Assembly (NCBI GenBank): GCA_016839785.1
Contig: JAEOTQ010000193.1
Coordinates: 1 to 12,781, forward strand
Length of the DNA stretch: 12,781 nt
Origin: Candidatus Hodarchaeota archaeon
GTDB lineage: Archaea; Asgardarchaeota; Heimdallarchaeia; Hodarchaeales; Hodarchaeaceae
Reading direction: 5' to 3'
Part shown: positions 333 through 12,781 of the stretch, piece by piece
How positions within the stretch are numbered: the first letter of the stretch is position 1
Layout: each line of letters begins with the position of its first letter
The notes under the pieces: generated by a model
Databases searched by the model: none
What the model was told of the DNA's origin: nothing
The model's input: the letters and a program-made list of their open reading frames with translations, nothing else
Position numbers and translations under genes: made by a program

Positions 333-3300
333 TCATGGTTTAAACTTTTTTCTTAAAGTTACCATTGAAATCGTGACTAAAATAATTAAAATAGACCAGT
401 TTGTCGTACTAGATGTAGTAGTTGTTGTGGTAGTTGTTGTAGTAGTTGTTGTGGTAGTTGTTGTAGTAGTTTGGGGGGGGGTGGTATCAGGGCCAGTAAT
501 TTCGAATTTCTTCAATCCTTGAACTATAAATGAATCAATTGTACCTGATGAGGGATCGTGCCCTTCAGTGTTCGTAAATATTAGCCTCTTTAGTATACCC
601 GAATTAGCGTTATATGTTAGGTTGAACACATGATCCTCAATAGCAAGTATTGATTCCCAAGTATCATCATGGGTTACAATAGAGGCATGAATTTCATTTT
701 TACCAGGAATGGCTGATTGACCAGTGTCATATAAGGTGGGATCACCGTGGATAAATAGATTCCACTCCTCTTTACTTTCTGTTGGGCCTCCTTCCCTTAC
801 AAGTGGTCCATTAACCAAATAGAAATTATTGTAGAAAAACCGTTCAGCTGCACGAATTCCAGACTCGTAGTTACCAAAGCCATCAGTTGTCACTAAAGGG
901 AAAATAAACCAGCCAAATTGCTGAGCGTGAGCAGGGTCGAGAGTTTTACCCCCTATGGAAACAGAAATTGGGTAAGAGATCGGCCCAGCTAATCCTACAG
1001 ACTCATCAGTAGCAGGATCAGAATTCCAAGTAATCCTTATAATATCAGCCTCATGGAGGCTCACATTCGCTGCTTCCCAGAACCAAGAGGCTGTACCCGT
1101 TTGATCCTCAATGGAAGTAATTTTGAATTCCAGCGTAGTCCCCTTTTTTACATTGGAATACCATTGTTGAGGCTCCTCTGAAACCCATTCTGGCGGAGAG
1201 CGAGGTTCCCATTGGCGCCAGATGGTTACATCATATCCCTCTGATTCCAACCAATCTAACGCTAATTGACGATCGTACGCATCCCACGCTGTAGTTGCAT
1301 CTGCCTCTAGGTATGAAGAATTACTAGCCATTATCATCTGTTTGTTAGAGAGCATTTCAGTTGCAGGTAGGACAGCCCATGAATTTAATGGTATGGGTGT
1401 ATGTACCACGGTTCCTAATCCGTTTTCTAGCTTATTGATTATCTCCAGACGAGGGATAACGTGGGAAATCGCGTGTCTTACCCCTTTTCGGTTAAAGGGT
1501 CTATCATTGACTCCAAGTTGAGTAGTAGTTGTAAATTTAGGGTTTACAGATAATGATTGCCAATTTGACTTTGGATCATAACCAATTTGAATAGTACTCT
1601 CCGTTTTAAAGCTAGAATATTCCGAGGCCAACATATATTTCTGATAATCCAATATATTGACATTTCCTGCTTTCAATTCCTCAATTGCATTATCCAAAGG
1701 CATTACGATAATTTCAACTGTTTGTAATGTATTATTCAATTTTCTATCTTTAATAAAAAAATGGTCATTTGAATCATTAGCAACCCATTTCCTACTGGAA
1801 TGATCCCATTGAATATTAGCAAACTTCTCTAAAGAAATTCGACCAGTTGAAGAATTATATTCCTTAAATATCATGGATCCACACCCAATAGGCCCATTCA
1901 GCCCGCCTGGATCTGAAGAATTGCCAGAATTATACGAATGGTTATCCCATTCATTCGGTGGAACCAACCAGTTTTTTGTGGCATTGAAGTCACCACTTAT
2001 ATTAAAACCATGGTTTGATGGGTCACCAAGAATATGTTCGGGGAATAGATGAAAACCTAGATAGCGAGTCTCGAAATCAACAGATTGATTGTCCAGATGA
2101 AAAGTCATTGATTCATAAAATCCATCTGCATCCATATCTTCAACAACAAATGCGTATAGGCCACTTTGCTTGACCTTATCATCCGCACCAAAGATAGCTC
2201 GTACATTCTTTGAGAAGAGATGAGGTATATCGGGAAGAAGTAACGCTTGATATGAAAATGCTACATCCCACGCGTCCAAGCGCTGACCATCATGCCAATA
2301 AACATCATCACGAATAGTGATACGATACTGAAGACCATCGCCGGAATAAGATCCTAACGAATTTGCTACACGGGGATATAATTTGAATGATTCAGTGGTG
2401 TTATAATTTGATAACATCCAAGAATCACGATCTATCTCTGGTGGAAGAAGCAATTGTTTAGAGGGAGTTTTCCCTACTAACACGTCCATTACTGGTGCTG
2501 CTACTGAATCGATAAAAAACTTATTGTAATTTTCTAAGAGGGTGTTAAAGTTTTCAAATGTTAAGTTAGTTGCGAAAACGACGTGGTCTTCTGATCCAGT
2601 ATAAGAAGAATCAGTCCAAAGACTTTCCAACCAAGATGAGGAGGAAATTGTCGACCACGCTATTGGGGATGCATATAAAGCAGGATCAAAACCGTAAAGC
2701 CCCGTAGATACTGGATAAAGGTTATGATAAGGCGTGTAAATTAGTACATTCGGTAATACATCATACCAGAGTTTTTGCCACTCGTACATAGATTCTCTGT
2801 AATCGTTAAGGTCCAATTCTGTATTAATCTGCTGAATAAACGTCTCAGATTCGCTGGCGCCATAGGTGAGATAATCTGTTGATTTAGAAGACCAATACAT
2901 TATGTTCATACCTGGAAATGGGGGTATACCCCCAAAATACCGCTGCAAAAAAAACCCACGATGATCACCATGCCATCCCCACCCATAACCTGCAAACAGT
3001 ATGTCATAGCCATTGTCACTCCATTGACCTGTCTCTTGGGTCCATAACCGCGGTTCCACACTATTCCAGCTTGCAATATTAACATCACATGAAATTCCAA
3101 TACTTTCTAACTCTCTGGCTACCCGATGGGCATATTGCATACGAACTGGATTTATTGGATCACCTGTAGGTACTAAAATCTGAGTATGAAATAGAGGTTC
3201 TGAAGAGTTTTGATCCGATGAAAGAATTTCACTCCTGGTATTCAACTCTCCAGGAGTTATGATATAAAACATTAAGACGAAGAATAGAGTAACCTTTAAG

Positions 3301-3341
3301 CTTACTTTATTTTTTTTGGTTTTACCCTTCTCATGAGACAT
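333..3341 (-). CDS. ABC transporter substrate-binding protein, family 5 (OppA/DppA-like), circularly permuted, with an extra C-terminal domain, Thr-rich linker and C-terminal membrane anchor
   Basis: Family-5 motifs DGLQYRITIRDDVYWHDGQRLDAWDVAFSY, PIGCGS, LKAGNVNIL, PFNRKGVRHAISHVIPR, YDRQLALDWLESEGY, ELESIGISCDV. Basic + hydrophobic N-terminal signal; C-terminal poly-Thr + hydrophobic helix + RKKFKP. SD-like GTGAGG upstream of the ATG. Confidence 0.88.
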   Translation of the reverse strand: MSHEKGKTKKNKVSLKVTLFFVLMFYIITPGELNTRSEILSSDQNSSEPLFHTQILVPTGDPINPVRMQYAHRVARELESIGISCDVNIASWNSVEPRLWTQETGQWSDNGYDILFAGYGWGWHGDHRGFFLQRYFGGIPPFPGMNIMYWSSKSTDYLTYGASESETFIQQINTELDLNDYRESMYEWQKLWYDVLPNVLIYTPYHNLYPVSTGLYGFDPALYASPIAWSTISSSSWLESLWTDSSYTGSEDHVVFATNLTFENFNTLLENYNKFFIDSVAAPVMDVLVGKTPSKQLLLPPEIDRDSWMLSNYNTTESFKLYPRVANSLGSYSGDGLQYRITIRDDVYWHDGQRLDAWDVAFSYQALLLPDIPHLFSKNVRAIFGADDKVKQSGLYAFVVEDMDADGFYESMTFHLDNQSVDFETRYLGFHLFPEHILGDPSNHGFNISGDFNATKNWLVPPNEWDNHSYNSGNSSDPGGLNGPIGCGSMIFKEYNSSTGRISLEKFANIQWDHSSRKWVANDSNDHFFIKDRKLNNTLQTVEIIVMPLDNAIEELKAGNVNILDYQKYMLASEYSSFKTESTIQIGYDPKSNWQSLSVNPKFTTTTQLGVNDRPFNRKGVRHAISHVIPRLEIINKLENGLGTVVHTPIPLNSWAVLPATEMLSNKQMIMASNSSYLEADATTAWDAYDRQLALDWLESEGYDVTIWRQWEPRSPPEWVSEEPQQWYSNVKKGTTLEFKITSIEDQTGTASWFWEAANVSLHEADIIRITWNSDPATDESVGLAGPISYPISVSIGGKTLDPAHAQQFGWFIFPLVTTDGFGNYESGIRAAERFFYNNFYLVNGPLVREGGPTESKEEWNLFIHGDPTLYDTGQSAIPGKNEIHASIVTHDDTWESILAIEDHVFNLTYNANSGILKRLIFTNTEGHDPSSGTIDSFIVQGLKKFEITGPDTTPPQTTTTTTTTTTTTTTTTTTTSSTTNWSILIILVTISMVTLRKKFKP
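414..471. repeat. 24-bp tandem repeat (~2.4 copies) encoding the poly-Thr linker
   Basis: TGTAGTAGTTGTTGTGGTAGTTGT occurs exactly at 414-437 and 438-461, with a partial copy at 462-471. A G9 run follows at 473-481. Confidence 0.9.
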
Positions 3342-3371
3342 TCAATCCCTCACAAGGTTATTGAATATGAT

Positions 3372-3396
3372 ATTGTAATTACAATTCTATATAAAA
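3372..3396. promoter_or_regulatory. Divergent promoter region: TATA box plus adjacent 14-bp palindrome
   Basis: Perfect palindrome ATTGTAATTACAAT (3372-3385) next to TATATAAAA (3388-3396; TTTTATATA on the minus strand), about 47 nt upstream of the SBP start and between two divergent genes. Confidence 0.55.
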
Positions 3397-3479
3397 TTAT
3401 CGTACCCTATAACACTCTAAGAAGATATATGGAGGAATTCCCTCTCATACTCATTTTAGCAGGATTGGGGATAAAAAAA

Positions 3480-6077
3480 GTGGTTGATTTAAGAGTTTGG
3501 GCTCCTAGTTTTATTGTGGGAGTTATTTTGCTAATTTTGATAGCAAGGTTCACCATCAGCGTTGAAATCAGCTCTGTTGAACTAATTTCTGGTTCTCCTA
3601 CATATTACTCATATCATCAATCTACCCCTTATGAGCCAGTAGAGCTGTGGAATTTTACAATGAAAAGTGGAGCGACTTATCCTGGATTAACTGGGAGCGC
3701 TATTACAAGCGATATAGATAAAGACGGAAAATTGGAAGTGGTTTTTGGGGGAGCGGATGGTTGGGTTTATGCATTAAATGCTGAGAATGGAAATCAATTG
3801 TGGGCTAACCCTGTTACTGATTGGATTCTCTCTACTTCTGTTGTAATAGGTGATGTCGATAATGACTCAATATTAGAAGTTTTCACTGGTTCTCATATGG
3901 GTACGATGTATGCATTAAATGCTCAAAGTGGAAATCTTCTGTGGACTTTTCCAACAGGGAGTTTAACAATTCAATCAACCCCTGCTCTTGGTAATATTGA
4001 CACTGACTCAGAATTAGAACTGGTCTTCGGTGCTTTTAACCATAAAATCTATGCTTTAAACGCTGAAGATGGGTCCCTCTTATGGAATTATACAACAGAG
4101 GGAGCAGTGCAATCATCCCCAGCTTTAGGAGATATTAATAACGATAACCAACTTGAAGTGGTCATTGGTAGCTCAGATCATAAAGTCTATGCACTAGATG
4201 GCGAGAGTGGGACTGTATTGTGGGCAACTGAAACTGGTGGATCTGTTATCTCTTCCCCAGCCCTGGCTCATGTGAATAATGATTCATATCTAGATGTGAT
4301 TGTTGGAAGCGATGATGGAGGTATATATACTTTCAATGGTTTAAACGGGAAAATTCTTTGGAAATACAGCACTGGGAATGCTATACGATCCTCTCCCGCC
4401 TTGGGGGATATCAATTATGATAACAAGCTTGATATTATAATAGGGAGTATGGATTATTACATTTATGCTTTAACGGCTGAAGATGGCCAACTCCTTTGGA
4501 AAACTCCAGCAGGTAATATAATCACATCCTCAGCTACTTTAGCTGATGTTAATAATGATATGAAACTAGATGTGGTTATTGGGTGTTACTCTGGGGTATT
4601 ATTAGCTCTTAATGGGGAGGATGGGAAGTTATTGTGGAGTTATCAAATTAATGGGGAAATCTGGGGGTCACCTACTGTTGGAGATCTAGATGATGATTCC
4701 AAAATTGAGATTTTCATTGGTGGTTATGAAGATCCTAATGTATATGCACTGGATATTGAAACAGCCGGGTCTCGTCTTTATTGGGAAGGAATGGCAGGAA
4801 GTAGCTTTTATAATCGCACAAAAAACTATCACGAAATAGATCCAGATAGGGATTTTCTATCAACATATTCAGAGCTTATTCTAGGTACAAATCCTTATAA
4901 CCATGATAGTGATAATGATCAAATGCTGGATGGCTGGGAGGTAAGCCTTGGTCTTGATCCCTCCATTAATGACGCTTCGTTTGATCCTGACAAGGATACT
5001 TTGACAAATATTGAAGAACATCTTTATACGACTGATCCAAATAATCCCGATAGCGATGGTGACTTTTTAAGGGATAATATCGAAATTATTCATGGTCTTA
5101 ATCCTAGAAATTCAACAGATGCAAGTATTGATCCTGATCAAGATGGTCTAAGGAATTTTGATGAAATTTTTTGGTATCATACTGACTGGAAAGATAATGA
5201 CTCTGATAATGATGGATTAACTGATGGTGACGAAGTTAAAGAACCTTATACTGATCCACTAGATCCTGACTCCGATACTGATTACATGCCTGACGGCTGG
5301 GAGGTATATTATGGACTTGATCCTACAGTGTATAATTCAGATTCCGATGATTATGATAATGATAATTTAATTGATCGTAATGAATACTTCAAAGGAACAG
5401 AGCCAAATAATAGTGATACTGACGAGGATGGGATCACTGATGGTGAAGAGGTTTATATTTATAATACTGATCCGCTAACCAACGATTCAGATAACGACAC
5501 AATGTATGATGGTTGGGAAGTCAATAATTCTTTGAATCCTAGGGATCCAACTGATGCGGAGTTAGATAATGATAGTGATGGACTGACAAATCTAGAAGAG
5601 CAATATTTTCTGATACACCTAGGGTGGATGTTAGATCCTTTAAACCCTGATTCTGATAATGATTCTCTGAAAGATGGTGATGAGATAGATTTTAATACTA
5701 ATCCAACAGACCCTGATACGGATAATGATGGGATCTTGGATGGAAAAGAAATAGATTTTAGACTTGATCCGACTGATCCTGATATGGATAATGATGGGGA
5801 TTTAGATGGCACTGAATTTGGACAATTACTGCTAGATCCAAGAAATCCTTGGTTGAATACTAAAACGAGGCTAGTGATCCTAGTAGGAATTCCTATAGTA
5901 ATTAGTTTAGGAATGGTAATTAATTTCTGGTATCTCCCAAAACGGAAGATGATCCGTGAAAAGTTGAGCCAATGGTGGATGAAACATATGTGGGGGATCC
6001 GTTATAGCGAAGAAGAAATTGCAGATTATGCGAAAGAAGCAACTAAAATTCTCCAAGAAGAAGAAGTAAAAAAATAG
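3480..6077 (+). CDS. Single-pass surface protein: FG-GAP/PQQ-like beta-propeller + thrombospondin type-3-like Ca-binding repeats + TM helix + cytoplasmic tail
   Basis: Eight ~46-aa repeats of SSPALGDINxDxxLEVVIGSxDxxVYALxxxxGxxLW, 14 DxDxDxxxxxxE repeats, TM LVILVGIPIVISLGMVINFWYL followed by PKRK. The ORF-track start (3333) overlaps the divergent gene. GTG 3480 (after GGGGAT, directly before a signal-like hydrophobic stretch) is preferred; ATG 3429 is the alternative. Confidence 0.88.
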   Translation: MVDLRVWAPSFIVGVILLILIARFTISVEISSVELISGSPTYYSYHQSTPYEPVELWNFTMKSGATYPGLTGSAITSDIDKDGKLEVVFGGADGWVYALNAENGNQLWANPVTDWILSTSVVIGDVDNDSILEVFTGSHMGTMYALNAQSGNLLWTFPTGSLTIQSTPALGNIDTDSELELVFGAFNHKIYALNAEDGSLLWNYTTEGAVQSSPALGDINNDNQLEVVIGSSDHKVYALDGESGTVLWATETGGSVISSPALAHVNNDSYLDVIVGSDDGGIYTFNGLNGKILWKYSTGNAIRSSPALGDINYDNKLDIIIGSMDYYIYALTAEDGQLLWKTPAGNIITSSATLADVNNDMKLDVVIGCYSGVLLALNGEDGKLLWSYQINGEIWGSPTVGDLDDDSKIEIFIGGYEDPNVYALDIETAGSRLYWEGMAGSSFYNRTKNYHEIDPDRDFLSTYSELILGTNPYNHDSDNDQMLDGWEVSLGLDPSINDASFDPDKDTLTNIEEHLYTTDPNNPDSDGDFLRDNIEIIHGLNPRNSTDASIDPDQDGLRNFDEIFWYHTDWKDNDSDNDGLTDGDEVKEPYTDPLDPDSDTDYMPDGWEVYYGLDPTVYNSDSDDYDNDNLIDRNEYFKGTEPNNSDTDEDGITDGEEVYIYNTDPLTNDSDNDTMYDGWEVNNSLNPRDPTDAELDNDSDGLTNLEEQYFLIHLGWMLDPLNPDSDNDSLKDGDEIDFNTNPTDPDTDNDGILDGKEIDFRLDPTDPDMDNDGDLDGTEFGQLLLDPRNPWLNTKTRLVILVGIPIVISLGMVINFWYLPKRKMIREKLSQWWMKHMWGIRYSEEEIADYAKEATKILQEEEVKK
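3636..4760 (+). repeat. Eight-blade FG-GAP/PQQ hybrid propeller repeats (protein level)
   Basis: Ca-loop variants DIDKDG, DVDNDS, NIDTDS, DINNDN, HVNNDS, DINYDN, DVNNDM, DLDDDS. Seven blades end in GxxLW; the N-terminal PVELW probably closes the eighth. Confidence 0.85.
4839..5816 (+). repeat. 14 acidic TSP3-like repeats (protein level)
   Basis: Run from DPDRDFLSTYSE to DMDNDGDLDGTE, usually separated by xxxxx[DN]Pxxx linkers, with a period of roughly 22-28 aa. Confidence 0.85.
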
Positions 6078-6243
6078 AAAAATGATTCATGTTATAAAAA
6101 ATGCGTCATGCTTCTGATAACTCCGAATATTTATAAGGAAAAAGAATTCTTACTATATTTAGTCTGAATTAATCCAATATAGGTACCAAACCAAAAATAT
6201 CTAACAAGTATCCATCTTAGATTTTTTAATACGTTGTGTAGAT

Positions 6244-7431
6244 ATGATTGAATCACCTTCTCCCATTCAAGACATATTTTCAATTGAGCCTTTATTTCTA
6301 GATATATTCAGGGATATCAACGAACAACATGCACGTATTCTCGCAATGATGTTTAAAATAGGAGGATATACCACACTAAATATCCTTACACAGCTTGTAG
6401 ATATAGCTCAACCAACAGTGAGTGTTCGTGTGCAGGAATTAGTAGATAAAGGATTTTTACGGAAAAATCCTGAGCTCATGCCAATTATCTTGGTTCTATC
6501 AATTTCTATGGAAGATATAAAACATGCATTAGATGAAAGAATGCGTGTACAACGAAATGCTATCGAATTCCTTGAGCAAGCCTCCGTATTAAGTAATAAA
6601 CAGATTATCGAAGCGTTATTAATTCGAGCATTTGATGTCATTTTTCCCCATTCTCTCAAGTTAGCTAAACTACTTGCATTTGTTTATTTAGAGGAAAAAA
6701 TAACTCGTGATGAGCTTTATAATCTTGTACGAAAGTTGGAAAATAAAAGTAAAAAAGATAAGGGGTTTTCAGATAGAGTATTTGATTCCATTATAGATGC
6801 TCATAAAGATTGGTTTCAAATAATTCGTCAAAAGAATCAATTCTATATCAAATCCGTAATTCCTCTGGATGTATTTGCGAAAACTCGGTTAGAGTTTACT
6901 GAAATAAAAACAGCATATTATACTTCCCGTCTTTTGACTCAACTTGAGTCTTCTATGACTGTTGAATACGAATCAATCATTCCCCATCAAATATTGGAAT
7001 ATCCATCCGAAATCAAATTAAGATTAAAATCCTGTTTACGTCATTATAGAAACATTAAGATAATAGACAATGGAATTTGTAAGGGAAAGGAGGATGGAGA
7101 AAGTTTATTAAATTTAATTTTGAATCATAAGCGAGTATTTAGATCAAGTAAATCAGAAAAACAGAATAGTCAATTCAGGATTAATGTTCTCACAAGCCAG
7201 CAAATAAATATACCAGAAGTACCAACAAATGTCACAGTCAAACAGAAAATATTAAAAGGGGACATTTCTCCAGATTTCCATTTACGGGACTTTCTAATTT
7301 TTGATAAAAATGGATGCCTTGTCTATCCAAAAAATCCTCACCAACAACCTTATTACAATATATCACCACAATATGTTTCAACAATACTGAATTTTTTTAT
7401 GCAAAAATGGGACGAAAAAGATGTTATCTGA
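6244..7431 (+). CDS. TrmB/MarR-like winged-helix transcriptional regulator, apparently with two wHTH-helix units and a TrmB-like C-terminal domain
   Basis: wHTH TTLNILTQLVDIAQPTVSVRVQELVDKGFLRK followed by a long helix; second degenerate unit LAKLLAFVYLEEKITRDELYNLV; C-terminal alpha/beta region with FLIFDK...FFMQKW resembling TrmB effector domains. Overlaps the next gene by 11 nt. Confidence 0.7.
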   Translation: MIESPSPIQDIFSIEPLFLDIFRDINEQHARILAMMFKIGGYTTLNILTQLVDIAQPTVSVRVQELVDKGFLRKNPELMPIILVLSISMEDIKHALDERMRVQRNAIEFLEQASVLSNKQIIEALLIRAFDVIFPHSLKLAKLLAFVYLEEKITRDELYNLVRKLENKSKKDKGFSDRVFDSIIDAHKDWFQIIRQKNQFYIKSVIPLDVFAKTRLEFTEIKTAYYTSRLLTQLESSMTVEYESIIPHQILEYPSEIKLRLKSCLRHYRNIKIIDNGICKGKEDGESLLNLILNHKRVFRSSKSEKQNSQFRINVLTSQQINIPEVPTNVTVKQKILKGDISPDFHLRDFLIFDKNGCLVYPKNPHQQPYYNISPQYVSTILNFFMQKWDEKDVI

Positions 7432-7990
7432 ATTTTTACGACTTATTAGGGGATTTATTCTGTTTATTGGTCCAACAGAGGCAGGTAAAACAAGTATATT
7501 ACGGAGATTAGTCACAGGAGAGTTTTCTGATCACTCTCCTACCCTTGGATTTCGTGAAGAGCAAATTGCCAAAGTCAGGGTAATTGAGATCGGAGGACAA
7601 GAAGGATTCCGAAGCCTCTGGAATGACGCTCTAGAGAGTAATCCTGTTCATACATTTTTTGTTATCGATATCACCAGAGACGACAATTGGGAGGAATTTA
7701 GGAAATACAGGAAGAGGTTGTCACAGTTTACTCTGATTGCAAATAAAAATGATTTAAATAAAAAATCTCTTGATAGGCTTCCAGAATTTGATTCTGCACT
7801 AATAAGTAGTGCTAAAACAGGAGAAGGAATGCTTAGTATATTAGAATCTATTGCTAGTTTGAGAACCGATGCTGAAGTACCATCCGCTCCCACTTCTTCA
7901 ATCGTGAGTAAAGAACACAAATCTAGTTCTTCAGAAAATGAGAAAGATCTCGCAGAGTCGATTTTAAAAGAATATCAAGATAAATTTTAG
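7421..7990 (+). CDS. Small GTPase, Arf/Arl-like (Ras superfamily)
   Basis: G1 GPTEAGKT, G2 PTLG, G3 EIGGQ (D->E), Arf-like RSLW after switch II, G4 NKND, G5 SAK. Short N-terminal amphipathic segment; Ser-rich linker and acidic helix at the C-terminus. Confidence 0.92.
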   Translation: MLSEFLRLIRGFILFIGPTEAGKTSILRRLVTGEFSDHSPTLGFREEQIAKVRVIEIGGQEGFRSLWNDALESNPVHTFFVIDITRDDNWEEFRKYRKRLSQFTLIANKNDLNKKSLDRLPEFDSALISSAKTGEGMLSILESIASLRTDAEVPSAPTSSIVSKEHKSSSSENEKDLAESILKEYQDKF

Positions 7991-8010
7991 TTGAATTAAC
8001 TAAACTTTAA

Positions 8011-8847
8011 TCAATCTCCACCAAATATCTTTGGAATAATCCGTATGAGTGTTGTGGAGAAAATATGATCAGGTTGATTAAGAGTATAAATAATACGTGA
8101 ATATTCAAGGTTTTGAAGCATTTTCATTGTTTCCAATAATTCAGCTTTTTGAAGTTCGAGATCTGTTGGAATCCAACCGAGAAATTCAGCTTGATTGTTT
8201 CCAATTTCTCTAGAAAATCGTTTTTCGATGAGTTGTTTCATTTTATGAGTTATTTCCTCATTTCGGACCATTTCATCAGGAATTTGGTTTGCTAATACAA
8301 AGACACGTGTCTTCAGATGTTCCTGCAATGCAGTGACCATACTAGTCGTGCCAAGAATATCAGCATTGCTTAGTTTAATAACAAAGAGGCTAACATCCGT
8401 TAATAGCATTGCATTTATGGTAGCATACCCTGTACCAGGAGAACAGTCGAGAATTAAATAATCAATTGAATAATCGTGTGTAATAGCTTTTTTGAGATCA
8501 ACAAGCCCTTGAAGCATCTTAAATGACTCTTTTTTATCGATTATAATTACTGACTGAATTGATTCAGGTGTTGGGTCGGCAAATCCAATTAACAACGATC
8601 CAGGAAAATTCAAATATTTCGCGTGTAATTGAAGACAGTTATATAGAGGTTCGGATCCAAATAAATAATTATTCAACCATTTTACCTTTGGATTCTTTTT
8701 AAAAAAGGTCATTATAGACGGCCCATGGAAATCCAGATCAAGAAGACAAACTTTTTTACCTATTTTAGTAAAGTACATCGCCAAATTCACAGCAATACTA
8801 CTTTTCCCGACACCGCCTTTATTCGAAAGAATGGAGAGAGATTTCAA
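8011..8847 (-). CDS. MinD/ParA family P-loop ATPase
   Basis: Deviant Walker A KGGVGKS with the signature Lys, A' motif LLDLDFHGP, Walker B YLILDCSPG, VLANQ and LGWIPTD. TTG start with GAGGA upstream. Confidence 0.92.
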   Translation of the reverse strand: MKSLSILSNKGGVGKSSIAVNLAMYFTKIGKKVCLLDLDFHGPSIMTFFKKNPKVKWLNNYLFGSEPLYNCLQLHAKYLNFPGSLLIGFADPTPESIQSVIIIDKKESFKMLQGLVDLKKAITHDYSIDYLILDCSPGTGYATINAMLLTDVSLFVIKLSNADILGTTSMVTALQEHLKTRVFVLANQIPDEMVRNEEITHKMKQLIEKRFSREIGNNQAEFLGWIPTDLELQKAELLETMKMLQNLEYSRIIYTLNQPDHIFSTTLIRIIPKIFGGD

Positions 8848-8979
8848 CTACATCGTCCTCTGTTCAATGCAAAATGAGCCATTATTTTTGGTATTTCGGT
8901 ACTGAATTGAACCTAATTTTTTTTAATGACATCAGGAATATAACAATTCATTATTATATTTGTGTGTCAATTATTTTGT

Positions 8980-9687
8980 TTAATATAAACAGAAATAACA
9001 TTTCTTCCCCCTATTTTCCGTTGTTTTAACATATCCTAGTTCGATTAATGTTTGCAAGTTCTTTTCAGTAGCAGACAAGTCATATTCAGCCTCTTGGGCT
9101 ATCTCATCAAGTGTTCCTCTACGCAAGTGAATTAGTGCTAACACTGTTGGATGTAAGTCCTTAGGTAAACTGAATATTTCATCTGGACTCAAAATTTTCT
9201 CGGGTTTATCCAGTTCCTGCTGTTTAGCTGATACCAAATCATTGATTCTTTGGGAAATCGTAGAAAGAAAACTAGAATCAATATCTTGAACTGAATGTTT
9301 ATTTTTTAAAACGGAACATAATAACCCTGTAAGAGAATCTTTGCAGAGAATAACTGCTGTGTCTAAATGTTTAGAATAAGTAATAATGAACATTGCAGGA
9401 GTCATTCCTCCCTCAAGTTGGATCCGAGTGTCTTCGACTACTGGATCTTCTATTAAAAAGCTGAAGGAAACAAAGTTCCACTCATAATCTGAATCACTCA
9501 CACGTGTCGTTTGTGGGAAAGGGCCATAAAGCCTTTCAAATTCTCCATATTGGTATAGAACTGCACTATATTCAATCATTGAAAGTAATTGATTATCGTC
9601 AAAGAGACAAGTTTCATTTTTCTCTTTCACAAGCCACCCTTTGTCTGTAAAAGAACCAAAACATACCCCAATATGCACGCATTTCAC
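8980..9687 (-). CDS. Putative longin/uDENN-like N-terminal domain fused to a C-terminal winged helix-turn-helix
   Basis: The C-terminal wHTH SLPKDLHPTVLALIHLRRGTLDEIAQEA...NLQTLIELGYVKTTENRGKKCYF is clear. The N-terminal beta-beta-alpha-beta-beta-beta-alpha pattern (GVCFGSF..G, LYGPFP, FSFLIED..D.R, MFIITY) suggests a longin-like fold, which is inference. The start may be GTG 9678, which has GGTGA upstream. Confidence 0.65.
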   Translation of the reverse strand: MKCVHIGVCFGSFTDKGWLVKEKNETCLFDDNQLLSMIEYSAVLYQYGEFERLYGPFPQTTRVSDSDYEWNFVSFSFLIEDPVVEDTRIQLEGGMTPAMFIITYSKHLDTAVILCKDSLTGLLCSVLKNKHSVQDIDSSFLSTISQRINDLVSAKQQELDKPEKILSPDEIFSLPKDLHPTVLALIHLRRGTLDEIAQEAEYDLSATEKNLQTLIELGYVKTTENRGKKCYFCLY

Positions 9688-10879: not shown

Positions 10880-12319
10880 ATGAAGCGAAAAACCGTTTTT
10901 ATTTTCCTCTTTATTGGGGTGTATTTGATTCTAATTAGTACATCCCCATTGATAAGAGCTTTGACATTCTCGACATCCAAGACAATTTCCCCTAGAAAAG
11001 CAATCTCGTACACGGCACATTCTCCTATCAAAATTTTTGGAAATGCGAGTTTCAAAAATACAGCACAGAGTGAAGGATGGCCTGGAGATGGTAGTGAAAG
11101 TAATCCTTATGTAATTGAGGGACTTGAAATTACTGGATCATCCTCCGACCTGACTTTAATCTTGATTGAGAAAACTGATGTTTATTTTAAAATTTCTAAT
11201 AACTCATTAGATGGAAAGAAACAAACTCAAGATGGTATCAAGCTCTTCAGCGTTAGTAATGGTATGATTCTGGATAATGAAGTCAAGAATTGTCTCTATG
11301 CGGGGATTAGTATTCAAAACTCAGCGACTAATACAATTTCAGGAAATACTGTCTCAAAAAATGGAAGATCAGGAACTTGGAAAGCTAATTATTGGAAGCT
11401 TGACCTTTGTGGTATGAATTTAATCGCCTCTCATTCAAATGAGATAACAAATAATACTATCACTTCTAATAATATTCATGGTATTAGTTTAGACGCCTCA
11501 TCTAATAATCTTCTATTAAAAAATGAAATTTCTGGACAGGAAGTGGGTTTGGGACTATTTCGGGGTGCTAATTACAATACTATATCAGAAAACGAGATTT
11601 TTTCCTGTCCTGATACTGGAATATTTTCTTATGATGCCACACAAGGAGATGTACTGGCTGAGAATTCTCATAATATTGTGACAAAAAATATTTTTCATAA
11701 AAATCGAGGTACTGGGGTCAATATGGGTGCAATTCAATTTTGTGGGTCAAATAACACGGTCTCATACAATGAATTTTACGATAACTCTATTTCAATCACA
11801 ATAGGGATGCGATGGCATGGGGTCCAGTATAATTGGCAAGCACAAAACATTATTGTAGCCCACAATATCATCTATACAAGCAGTATTGGTATTTTGGTGA
11901 AATACGCTAACCAAGCAGTTATAATGAACAATTCAATCTATCAAAATAGTAATTATGGACTTGAAATCACAAATCAGTCTTCTCAAACCATTGTCAAATG
12001 GAATGATTTTCTTGATAACAATGTTGAAGGAGATTCTCAAGCGGTAGATAACGGCATAAACAACACCTTTTCTTCGAACTACTGGGGGAGTCTCTCCACT
12101 GACTCGTATTCTATTGCAGGTACGGCAGGAAATGTTGATTCGTCGCCATTAGCATCATTAAAACGTGTTGAAGAGTATAGTCAAGTGTATTTCCCCGCTA
12201 CCTCTGATACATCTACTACCACTACCTCCACCTCTAAAACAAGTCTGGGTTGGCAAATAATTCTTGTTCTGCCAATTATATTTGTTTTTGGAATAATTCA
12301 AAAGAAGAAAAGGATGTAA
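10880..12319 (+). CDS. NosD-like right-handed parallel beta-helix surface protein with C-terminal anchor
   Basis: Signal peptide; HSPIKIFGN...EGWPGDGSESNPYVIEGLEI cap; repeated GIxLxxSxxNxIxxNxI rungs; DNGINNTFSSNYW...DSSPL end motif; Thr/Ser linker + GW + hydrophobic helix + KKKR. SD-like GAGTGA upstream. Confidence 0.9.
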   Translation: MKRKTVFIFLFIGVYLILISTSPLIRALTFSTSKTISPRKAISYTAHSPIKIFGNASFKNTAQSEGWPGDGSESNPYVIEGLEITGSSSDLTLILIEKTDVYFKISNNSLDGKKQTQDGIKLFSVSNGMILDNEVKNCLYAGISIQNSATNTISGNTVSKNGRSGTWKANYWKLDLCGMNLIASHSNEITNNTITSNNIHGISLDASSNNLLLKNEISGQEVGLGLFRGANYNTISENEIFSCPDTGIFSYDATQGDVLAENSHNIVTKNIFHKNRGTGVNMGAIQFCGSNNTVSYNEFYDNSISITIGMRWHGVQYNWQAQNIIVAHNIIYTSSIGILVKYANQAVIMNNSIYQNSNYGLEITNQSSQTIVKWNDFLDNNVEGDSQAVDNGINNTFSSNYWGSLSTDSYSIAGTAGNVDSSPLASLKRVEEYSQVYFPATSDTSTTTTSTSKTSLGWQIILVLPIIFVFGIIQKKKRM

Positions 12320-12542: not shown

Positions 12543-12781
12543 CTAACGTAAGCCAAACAATCGGTTCATTTTAGCAAAAAATAAGTCGTAGGCGTTAAAC
12601 ATTGTTTGGACGTTTCGAAAAATTCGTACTCGTGGTAACATTGTACGCATTTTAACTGCCCTGTGATCTAAGATAAGACTTGCAGCAAAGTCTGATTCAG
12701 ATCTAATCCCTCGTCCAATTGCTTGTGAAATTCCCCGTGTCACTGGTAACCTTGTGAGGTATTTAGCCATTTGCCAACCCC
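12543..12781 (-). CDS. C-terminus of an XPD/Rad3/DinG-family SF2 DNA helicase (partial)
   Basis: The frame is open to the right edge (..GWQMAKYL). QAIGRGIRSESDFAASLILDHR matches XPD/DinG motif VI QxxGRxIRxxxDxxxxxxxDxR, so the ATG at 12770 is internal. Confidence 0.85.
   Translation of the reverse strand, partial: GWQMAKYLTRLPVTRGISQAIGRGIRSESDFAASLILDHRAVKMRTMLPRVRIFRNVQTMFNAYDLFFAKMNRLFGLR

Follow-up and report, generated by a model that had tools for sequence, protein, structure and literature searches.

The window analysed here, the whole 12,781-nt contig JAEOTQ010000193.1 from the genome of a Candidatus Hodarchaeota archaeon (4.04 Mb, 84.5% complete), carries at 6244–9687 two gene pairs that face each other, each consisting of a winged-helix protein followed by a P-loop switch nucleoside triphosphatase (NTPase). 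On the plus strand, the TrmB-like protein P1 precedes an Arf-like small GTPase; on the minus strand, the longin and winged-helix protein P4 precedes a MinD/ParA-type ATPase. Related genomes hold the two NTPases in separate gene sets, termed below module A (P1, its GTPase and longin proteins) and module B (the ATPase and a winged-helix adaptor). P4 joins parts of both, with a module-A longin domain at its N-terminus and the helix and winged helix of module B at its C-terminus. An earlier note on this DNA, made from the sequence alone, had placed the genes correctly: open reading frame (ORF) calls and the sequence agree on all four, with stop codons 20 bp apart, and Pfam matches and predicted structures agree on the make-up of each pair.

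6244–7431, plus strand: P1, TrmB-like regulator-type protein (ORF, 395 aa)
7421–7990, plus strand: Arf-like small GTPase (ORF, 189 aa), its first 11 nt overlapping the end of P1
7991–8010: spacer between the convergent stop codons, 20 bp, bridged by contigs of runs X1, X2, X4 and X6
8011–8847, minus strand: MinD/ParA-type ATPase (ORF, 278 aa)
8848–8979: spacer between P4 and the ATPase gene, 132 bp, A/T-rich
8980–9687, minus strand: P4, longin and winged-helix protein (ORF, 235 aa)
9208–9687, minus strand: P4 residues 1–160, longin domain (AlphaFold2 model, structural matches, 21 homologous domains in 14 module-A loci)
8980–9207, minus strand: P4 residues 161–235, linker and winged helix (hhalign to adaptors; winged helix-turn-helix (wHTH) fold, Z about 10)

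Because contigs of public sequencing runs bridge both spacers, the arrangement is real and common to a second strain of roughly 94% identity. In that strain, which comes from a different study, the gene order is identical, and a 5601-nt contig spans 6658–9700 unbroken, with 195 substitutions and 3 indels relative to the window, all 3 indels falling inside the 8848–8979 spacer. Among the 11 runs listed, none is an RNA run. The minus-strand pair is the looser of the two, its genes being 132 bp apart, whereas those of the plus-strand pair overlap by 11 nt. P4 itself probably starts at the second GTG of its reading frame (9678), to judge from the GGTGA just upstream and from the 93%-identical protein P0001, which begins there.

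The four proteins

Pfam gives only weak winged-helix matches to P1 (HTH_24/MarR, residues 24–75), and its TrmB family (PF01978) has no match to P1 at E ≤ 1. The AlphaFold2 model (predicted local distance difference test score, pLDDT, 86.7) is more informative, having an extra N-terminal winged helix (about residues 13–110) ahead of a TrmB-like core (121–395), in which a second winged helix, a long helix and a phospholipase D (PLD)-fold domain follow one another. Foldseek matched the model to TrmBL2 (5bpd_B, 6e-6) and TrmB (3qph_A, 1e-4), and VIA aligned residues 121–395 with TrmB (3qph_A, Z 11.1) and residues 247–395 with the TrmB sugar domain (2f5t_X, Z 10.9, root-mean-square deviation (rmsd) 3.5). 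At the level of fold P1 belongs with TrmB and TrmBL2, on whose wHTH, coiled coil and PLD-fold effector subdomain residues 121–395 superpose; it differs from both in its additional N-terminal winged helix, and in always being encoded with a GTPase. Sugar sensing is unlikely, since the match of P1 to the TrmB sugar-binding domain is confined to its first subdomain. Within the literature library searched, no paper linked TrmB to small GTPases or longins of Asgard archaea, and the terms TrmB, neighbourhood and operon are all absent from a preprint on Asgard Arf GTPases (bioRxiv 10.1101/2024.02.28.582541).

The GTPase belongs to the Pfam Arf family (PF00025, 47.4 bits against a cut-off of 22.3, E 2e-12), in a match that covers only residues 13–99 (profile positions 17–106 of 174); its closest solved relatives are Arf1 proteins (2e-8), and the best ones are all Arf/Arl. 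Small GTPases are marked by the motifs GxxxxGK[ST] (G1), DxxGQ (G3), NKxD (G4) and SAK (G5). The window protein has GPTEAGKT at G1, NKND and SAK, and reads EIGGQ at G3, where an invariant Glu replaces Asp throughout its family (EIGG for DxxG; alignment A8). The same alignment reveals a conserved 11-residue N-terminal segment. At the C-terminus (residues ~150–189) a low-complexity linker is followed by a conserved motif ending in KF; in the family this end motif has the consensus ESILKEFQGKF behind a variable linker, and two complete short forms are without it. Together with ten metagenome proteins, the window GTPase forms a private subclade, with a Shimodaira–Hasegawa-like approximate likelihood-ratio test (SH-aLRT) value of 99.

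For the ATPase, MinD/ParA membership is clear from Pfam matches to ParA (PF10609, 74.9 bits against 27.1, E 9e-21), AAA_31 (PF13614, 63.8 against 27, E 2.5e-17) and CbiA (PF01656, 49.7 against 25.4, 4e-13), and from the deviant Walker A motif of the SIMIBI class (KGGVGKS, residues 10–16). It is not a true MinD by the NCBIfam models, scoring 41.7 bits against a cut-off of 212.9 for the bacterial form (TIGR01968) and 38.2 against 201.75 for the archaeal (TIGR01969). It retains all invariant columns of an Asgard MinD clade, within which it forms a private subclade with four metagenome proteins (P0143–P0145 and P0343; SH-aLRT 100). Bacterial MinD carries a C-terminal membrane-targeting helix, and the C-terminal end of the Asgard clade, which is conserved and hydrophobic/basic with the consensus LIPxLFGE (alignment A5), could by its position be an analogous one.

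P4 is scarcely visible to sequence profiles: Pfam finds a weak winged-helix match (residues 183–233), and neither Folliculin nor NPR2 matches at E ≤ 1, which places P4 outside both families. Its AlphaFold2 model (pLDDT 90.5) has residues 1–160 in the ββ-α-βββ-αα topology of a longin fold, ending in a long helix (138–160) that leads into a winged helix (168–235). In an all-against-representatives structure search the top match was a Lokiarchaeota longin domain (8yqg_B, Z 12.8, rmsd 2.9, 135 residues aligned) and the second the Lst4 longin (4zy8_C, Z 12.1, rmsd 2.7, 124 aligned), with C9orf72–SMCR8 (Z 9.2), Npr2 (Z 9.2) and FLCN–FNIP2 (Z 8.7) further down; the top Foldseek rows were GATOR1 subunits. 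The label ‘longin-like–wHTH’, which the earlier note had reached without a structure, is therefore correct. The longin family profile (A7) had no match among PDB sequences, and an ESM Atlas cluster with NPR2 in 19% of its members scored 0.79, under the counting level.

In the longin family, G55-P56-x-P58 of P4 is invariant and Arg88 is conserved. The Arg occurs in 16 of the 22 rows of alignment A1 and in 34–35 of the 39 rows of a wider set, which has the Gly-Pro in 34 rows. These residues are compatible with a GTPase-activating protein (GAP) of the FLCN/NPRL2/SMCR8 kind, although the protein may instead be a guanine nucleotide exchange factor (GEF). Five of the six A1 rows that are missing the Arg88 equivalent are short two-helix membrane forms (229–241 aa). 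Arg-less short forms stand in tandem with an Arg-bearing longin protein, an arrangement that recalls, by analogy, the catalytic/non-catalytic pairs of eukaryotic longin GAP dimers.

Two modules in related genomes

Homologues of P1 are present in 16 of 41 related genomes, the window genome (G000) included. For module A, 17 related genomes supplied 19 regions that surround a P1 homologue; one of these, with only an N-terminal P1 fragment, was set aside. The other 18 all have a long P1 match with the GTPase directly downstream, and 14 of them also encode P4-type longins, in one or two proteins each and 21 in all; of the four loci without a longin, two are on short contigs, one is cut off by the end of its contig beside the GTPase gene and one is partly covered. 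The longin is never N-terminal in these relatives. It forms the last roughly 150 residues of proteins of 229–926 aa, just behind a hydrophobic segment in 18 of the 21 (by a crude Kyte–Doolittle scan) and behind tetratricopeptide repeats in the remaining 3, and the long longin-tailed proteins have NosD/beta-helix or fibronectin-type ectodomains. The core of module A is a TrmB-like protein with two winged helices, in translational coupling with a private Arf-like GTPase; the relatives add FLCN/NPRL2/Lst4-like longins, mostly as the cytoplasmic tails of single-pass surface proteins. In four module-A loci (listed below), the GTPase gene is separated from those of the longin-tailed membrane proteins by a gene for a protein of 363–390 aa, possibly a multi-pass membrane protein.

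In module B a MinD/ParA-type ATPase is accompanied by an adaptor in which a longin-like domain precedes a long helix and a winged helix; the set is of the ‘ParA-wHTH’ type. According to an October 2026 preprint (Li, Burroughs and Aravind, bioRxiv 10.64898/2026.10.19.760177), ParA-wHTH systems couple a ParA gene of the ConB2 assemblage to a wHTH protein with an elongated N-terminal helix; they are mostly archaeal, the wHTH evolves rapidly and is in some cases fused to a profilin-longin-like domain, and an immune role has been proposed. Orthologues of the window ATPase at 47–62% identity adjoin genes that match P4 residues 135–234. An adaptor-type wHTH partner is present in all 17 loci where the orthologue is unfused: in 16 it is an adaptor of 165–217 aa encoded directly after the ATPase gene, and in the other a leucine-rich repeat (LRR)-wHTH protein precedes the ATPase gene, in the same order as P4. 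One of the 16 is in the window genome itself, which holds a second, ordinary MinD and adaptor pair on another contig (C202). The N-terminal domain of the ordinary adaptors may be longin-like, as is suggested by a weak Fuz_longin_1 match (E 0.0054) in one of three relatives’ adaptors scanned with Pfam, and by what the preprint outlines; against the PDB, the adaptor family profile gave only weak wHTH matches (E ≥ 0.15). Several relatives (L044 at 4832–7080 and 17078–17575; L045; L046; L048) have two to three copies of the adaptor gene per locus, placed ahead of the ATPase gene, after it, and at a distance of a few kb.

In four relatives, an ATPase of this clade (51–53% identical to that of the window) is fused to a Roc/Ras-type GTPase and a C-terminal DUF4145 domain. 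These fusions show, independently, that the clade has repeatedly been combined with small GTPases, and they hint at coupling. Upstream of one of them (L061), 0.9 kb away on the other strand and beyond a 219-aa ORF, lies the gene for a 209-aa protein with a C-terminal winged helix.

L060 1–1738; L061 4761–7469; L062 866–3553; L063 1–1696: MinD–Roc GTPase–DUF4145 fusions, 895–902 aa where complete
L055 3881–5074: LRR and adaptor-type winged helix, 397 aa, before the MinD orthologue and replacing the usual adaptor behind it
L027 10321–11412; L029 9474–10619; L031 6923–8068; L032 10354–11526: protein of 363–390 aa with a strongly hydrophobic N-terminal stretch

Each module is conserved in its own right, and in these surveys the two do not meet: a MinD-type gene stands beside the P1/GTPase pair in 0 of the 18 relative loci, and P1 or its cognate GTPase beside a MinD orthologue in 0 of 21 (17 unfused, 4 fused). 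This is the synteny comparison that the earlier note had itself suggested for its proposal of a circuit, in which two HTH proteins, a GTPase and a positioning ATPase would serve chromosome positioning, polarity or GTP-gated transcription. The four domain types are indeed all present and tightly packed, and both winged-helix proteins could bind DNA, but the arrangement is not kept as a unit outside a narrow lineage. A generally conserved four-component unit is contradicted by these counts, such a circuit is very improbable, and the three roles named for it are guesses.

P4 as a hybrid, and the possible coupling of two switches

The two halves of P4 have different relatives. Residues 1–160 match only the receptor-tail longins of module A, and residues 135–234 match the C-terminal half of the MinD-associated adaptors, which are encoded by genes for roughly 210 aa. 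When alignment A1 was compared with A3 by hhalign, only P4 residues 117–234 aligned, to adaptor residues 100–216 (hhalign probability 99.2, E 3e-19). The window genome has a single longin of the module-A type, P4, next to its single copies of P1 and of the cognate GTPase.

The hybrid has also persisted beyond the window. A search of 1.84 billion proteins with the longin family profile gave only 139 representatives. Of the 31 with E ≤ 1e-30, nearly all carry the domain as a C-terminal tail, the one clear exception being the hybrid cluster. Among 5.8 billion proteins, full-length hybrids from metagenomes were found at 93, 61 and 55% identity to P4, with identity spread evenly over longin, linker and wHTH in the latter two (61/65/60% and 55/54/54%, respectively). 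The MinD protein P0144 and the GTPase P0260, each 65% identical to its window counterpart, are both recorded, by the same source and the same size, on a 1687-nt ENA contig, a length that the two genes together would almost take up; indirectly, this points to a GTPase/MinD junction that predates the species. A scan of genome contigs for hybrids returned known relatives only.

The locus is best read, with somewhat better than even confidence, as a lineage-specific merger of two Hodarchaeales-type Asgard NTPase-switch modules that share P4. The claim of the earlier note that the two pairs are linked fails for a general unit and survives for this lineage, in which it is carried by the hybrid, its persistence and the matching private subclades. 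What is new here is the hybrid adaptor with its matching private MinD and GTPase subclades. Of the note’s further remark that no described system has this composition, the part that covers the MinD and wHTH pairing falls away, as that pairing is already outlined in the ParA-wHTH preprint (bioRxiv 10.64898/2026.10.19.760177); for the module-A combination no described system was found in the literature library searched.

Several observations weigh against a merger. Besides the separation of the modules in all relatives surveyed, none of 83 species genomes of the class holds a full-length hybrid beyond the window genome (G000), and a metagenome scan for hybrid context gave only the receptor-type loci L064 and L065, without the GTPase. 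The co-location of P0144 and P0260 is read only from their shared source and contig size. The ATPase has an end branch of 0.91 against a median of 0.08, which marks it as a fast-evolving member of its clade, and its fast evolution could reflect relaxed constraint instead of new function; the winged helix of the hybrids likewise falls outside every ordinary adaptor, at the end of a very long branch (2.73). In an approximately unbiased (AU) test, a tree with the receptor tails as one clade that excludes the hybrids was not rejected (p 0.24), and derivation of the hybrid longin from a receptor tail therefore stays unproven. P4 and the ATPase gene, with 132 bp between them, may be transcribed separately. 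Finally, the P4 model puts G55-P56 at the start of the third strand and R88 between the fourth and fifth, whereas the GP motif of GAP-type longins, in which the arginine finger is catalytic, is described as preceding the second strand (PMC12290439); because the strand differs, the equivalence of the P4 Gly-Pro with the eukaryotic catalytic site is unsecured.

A first alternative is that the two pairs are chance neighbours. The pairs would then be independent, and P4 a ParA-wHTH adaptor into which a paralogous longin had been swapped, unrelated to the Arf-like GTPase. The modules are unlinked in every relative examined (0 of 18 and 0 of 21), and adaptors of this ATPase clade already tolerate varied N-terminal domains, both longin-like and LRR. 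Set against this, module A is elsewhere nearly always accompanied by a longin partner (14 of 18, the misses being mostly truncated loci), and in the window genome P4 is the only longin of that type; the hybrid, the private MinD subclade and the private GTPase subclade exist at comparable divergence, and the gene order is kept in the roughly 94% identical strain. Chance adjacency is unlikely, although it is the strongest competitor to the merger.

A second alternative is that the ATPase and wHTH form a ParA-wHTH defence system that coats the DNA of invaders, here with a recruited GTPase/longin sensor. Helix 138–160 of P4 and its wHTH fit the mostly archaeal, fast-evolving wHTH with an elongated N-terminal helix that the preprint outlines, the wHTH and MinD are both on long branches, and relatives carry adaptor genes in several tandem copies. 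However, PADLOC models give generic P-loop or wHTH matches only (the best 3e-6 over 42 residues), and the Pfam-scanned neighbours are surface proteins, with no nuclease, integrase or other defence gene among them; moreover, the immune role is itself only a computational hypothesis (bioRxiv 10.64898/2026.10.19.760177). A defence function is improbable, less likely than chance adjacency, and the immune role proposed in the preprint is neither supported nor excluded by the window locus.

Under the merger reading, the longin half of P4 would bind and regulate the Arf-like GTPase, as longin platforms do for small GTPases; conserved Arg88 suggests that the regulation may be GAP-like. The helix and wHTH half would work with the MinD-type ATPase, probably on DNA, and P1, which is always co-encoded with the GTPase, probably reads the state of that GTPase. 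Elsewhere the GTPase switch is apparently fed by membrane receptors; in the window lineage it may be connected to a ParA-like ATPase assembly, which would replace or supplement a receptor. If both halves of P4 keep their partners, the GTPase cycle is linked to ATPase assembly. Coupling of the GTPase and ATPase switches in the window lineage is plausible but unproven, and the stronger proposition, that one adaptor physically couples an Arf-like GTPase of the TRAFAC class to a MinD/ParA ATPase of the SIMIBI class, is doubtful. A complex prediction for the ATPase (A5) and P4 (A7) gave 0.01 against a mark of 0.32, run with no controls, and speaks neither for nor against binding. Were the physical link real, one switch would, through its nucleotide state, decide whether the other assembles on DNA or at the membrane, and at which place. 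P4 would then be a natural ‘Rosetta stone’, with Asgard receptor-tail longins and ParA adaptors as interchangeable parts of a toolkit, and the MinD–Roc GTPase fusions of sister genomes would be a second, independent answer to the same coupling.

Known systems and neighbouring genes

MglA–MglB pairs a bacterial small GTPase with a Roadblock regulator, and MinD–MinE and ParA–ParB are two-gene systems built on a deviant Walker A ATPase. The window locus resembles all three in encoding a dedicated small regulator or adaptor beside each NTPase, and MglA–MglB also in drawing its regulator domains from the profilin/Roadblock/longin superfamily. It departs from MglA–MglB in having a longin in place of Roadblock and an Arf-like in place of an MglA-like GTPase, and from the other two in that its ATPase lies far under the true-MinD cut-offs and has no MinE or ParB homologue.

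The closest parallel for the minus-strand pair is the ParA-wHTH type, to which it belongs by its gene make-up: behind the P4 longin, the helix 138–160 and wHTH are homologous to the adaptors of the orthologues and are encoded beside the ATPase gene; here too the partner of an ATPase gene encodes a fast-evolving wHTH with a long helix ahead of it. The pair is unlike the systems outlined in the preprint in that the adaptor gene precedes the ATPase gene, where there it follows, in that the P4 longin is of the receptor-tail (module-A) type, and in that the pair abuts an Arf-like GTPase/TrmB-like pair.

The longin half was compared with the eukaryotic longin GAP complexes, namely FLCN–FNIP and Lst7–Lst4, which act on RagC/Gtr2; NPRL2–NPRL3 of GATOR1, on RagA; and C9orf72–SMCR8, on Arf1. 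These are among the best structural matches of the P4 longin fold, the P4-type longin is genomically tied to an Arf-family GTPase and has a conserved Arg and a conserved Gly-Pro, and the tandem Arg-bearing and Arg-less longins of relatives recall heterodimers; as in NPRL2/3, the longin of P4 is followed by a winged-helix-type domain. The differences are as marked. P4 has no sequence-level match to Pfam Folliculin or NPR2 or to any PDB sequence, it is without a DENN domain, and its Gly-Pro is on another strand than the motif as published. Furthermore, its partner is a TrmB-like protein, and its longin, which relatives use as a receptor tail, is here part of a wHTH fusion. FLCN/SMCR8-type longins with a GP motif and arginine have been described in Heimdallarchaeia, in a study that also raises the question of their partner GTPases (PMC12290439).

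Asgard archaea encode many small GTPases and longin/Roadblock proteins, and few of these regulators have been matched to the GTPase that they serve. In the cultured Asgard archaeon MK-D1 GTPase/regulator gene pairs generally lie outside operons (PMC10933270). Because such operons are rare there, matched sets such as the window locus are useful. It pairs one soluble and easily expressed longin protein, P4, with one specific Arf-like GTPase, a TrmB-like protein and a MinD-type ATPase; its receptor-tail relatives are membrane-anchored and P4 is not, which makes P4 the easiest starting point for work on the receptor-longin/Arf-like/TrmB-like module. The hybrid further illustrates how new wiring can arise through swapped adaptor domains.

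The remaining genes of the window encode mainly surface proteins:

333–3341, minus strand: SBP_bac_5 surface protein, 1002 aa, with a run of about 20 threonines before the membrane anchor
3333–6077, plus strand: PQQ/FG-GAP beta-propeller surface protein, 914 aa, with bacterial TSP3 repeats and a C-terminal anchor
10880–12319, plus strand: NosD/beta-helix surface protein, anchored in the membrane at its C-terminus and without an inner domain (Pfam Beta_helix 2e-27, NosD 1.5e-24)
12543–12779, minus strand: gene cut by the contig end, its last 78 residues matching Helicase_C_2, a C-terminal helicase domain (Pfam 2e-6)

The best blastp match of the 10880–12319 protein among the fetched loci (31% identity over 514 columns, 1.5e-41) is to the ectodomain of a 784-aa receptor with a longin tail in a relative (L028 9542–11896). 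The idea that this gene is the severed ectodomain of a split receptor was set aside and the gene kept as context, the identity being only 31% and the gene lying on the opposite strand; the match is a weak sign of such an event because surface proteins of this kind are common. At the other end of the window, the genes at 333–3341 and 3333–6077 diverge from overlapping starts, and the cytoplasmic tail of the 914-aa protein contains an acidic ILQE stretch loosely similar to the end motif of the GTPase family.

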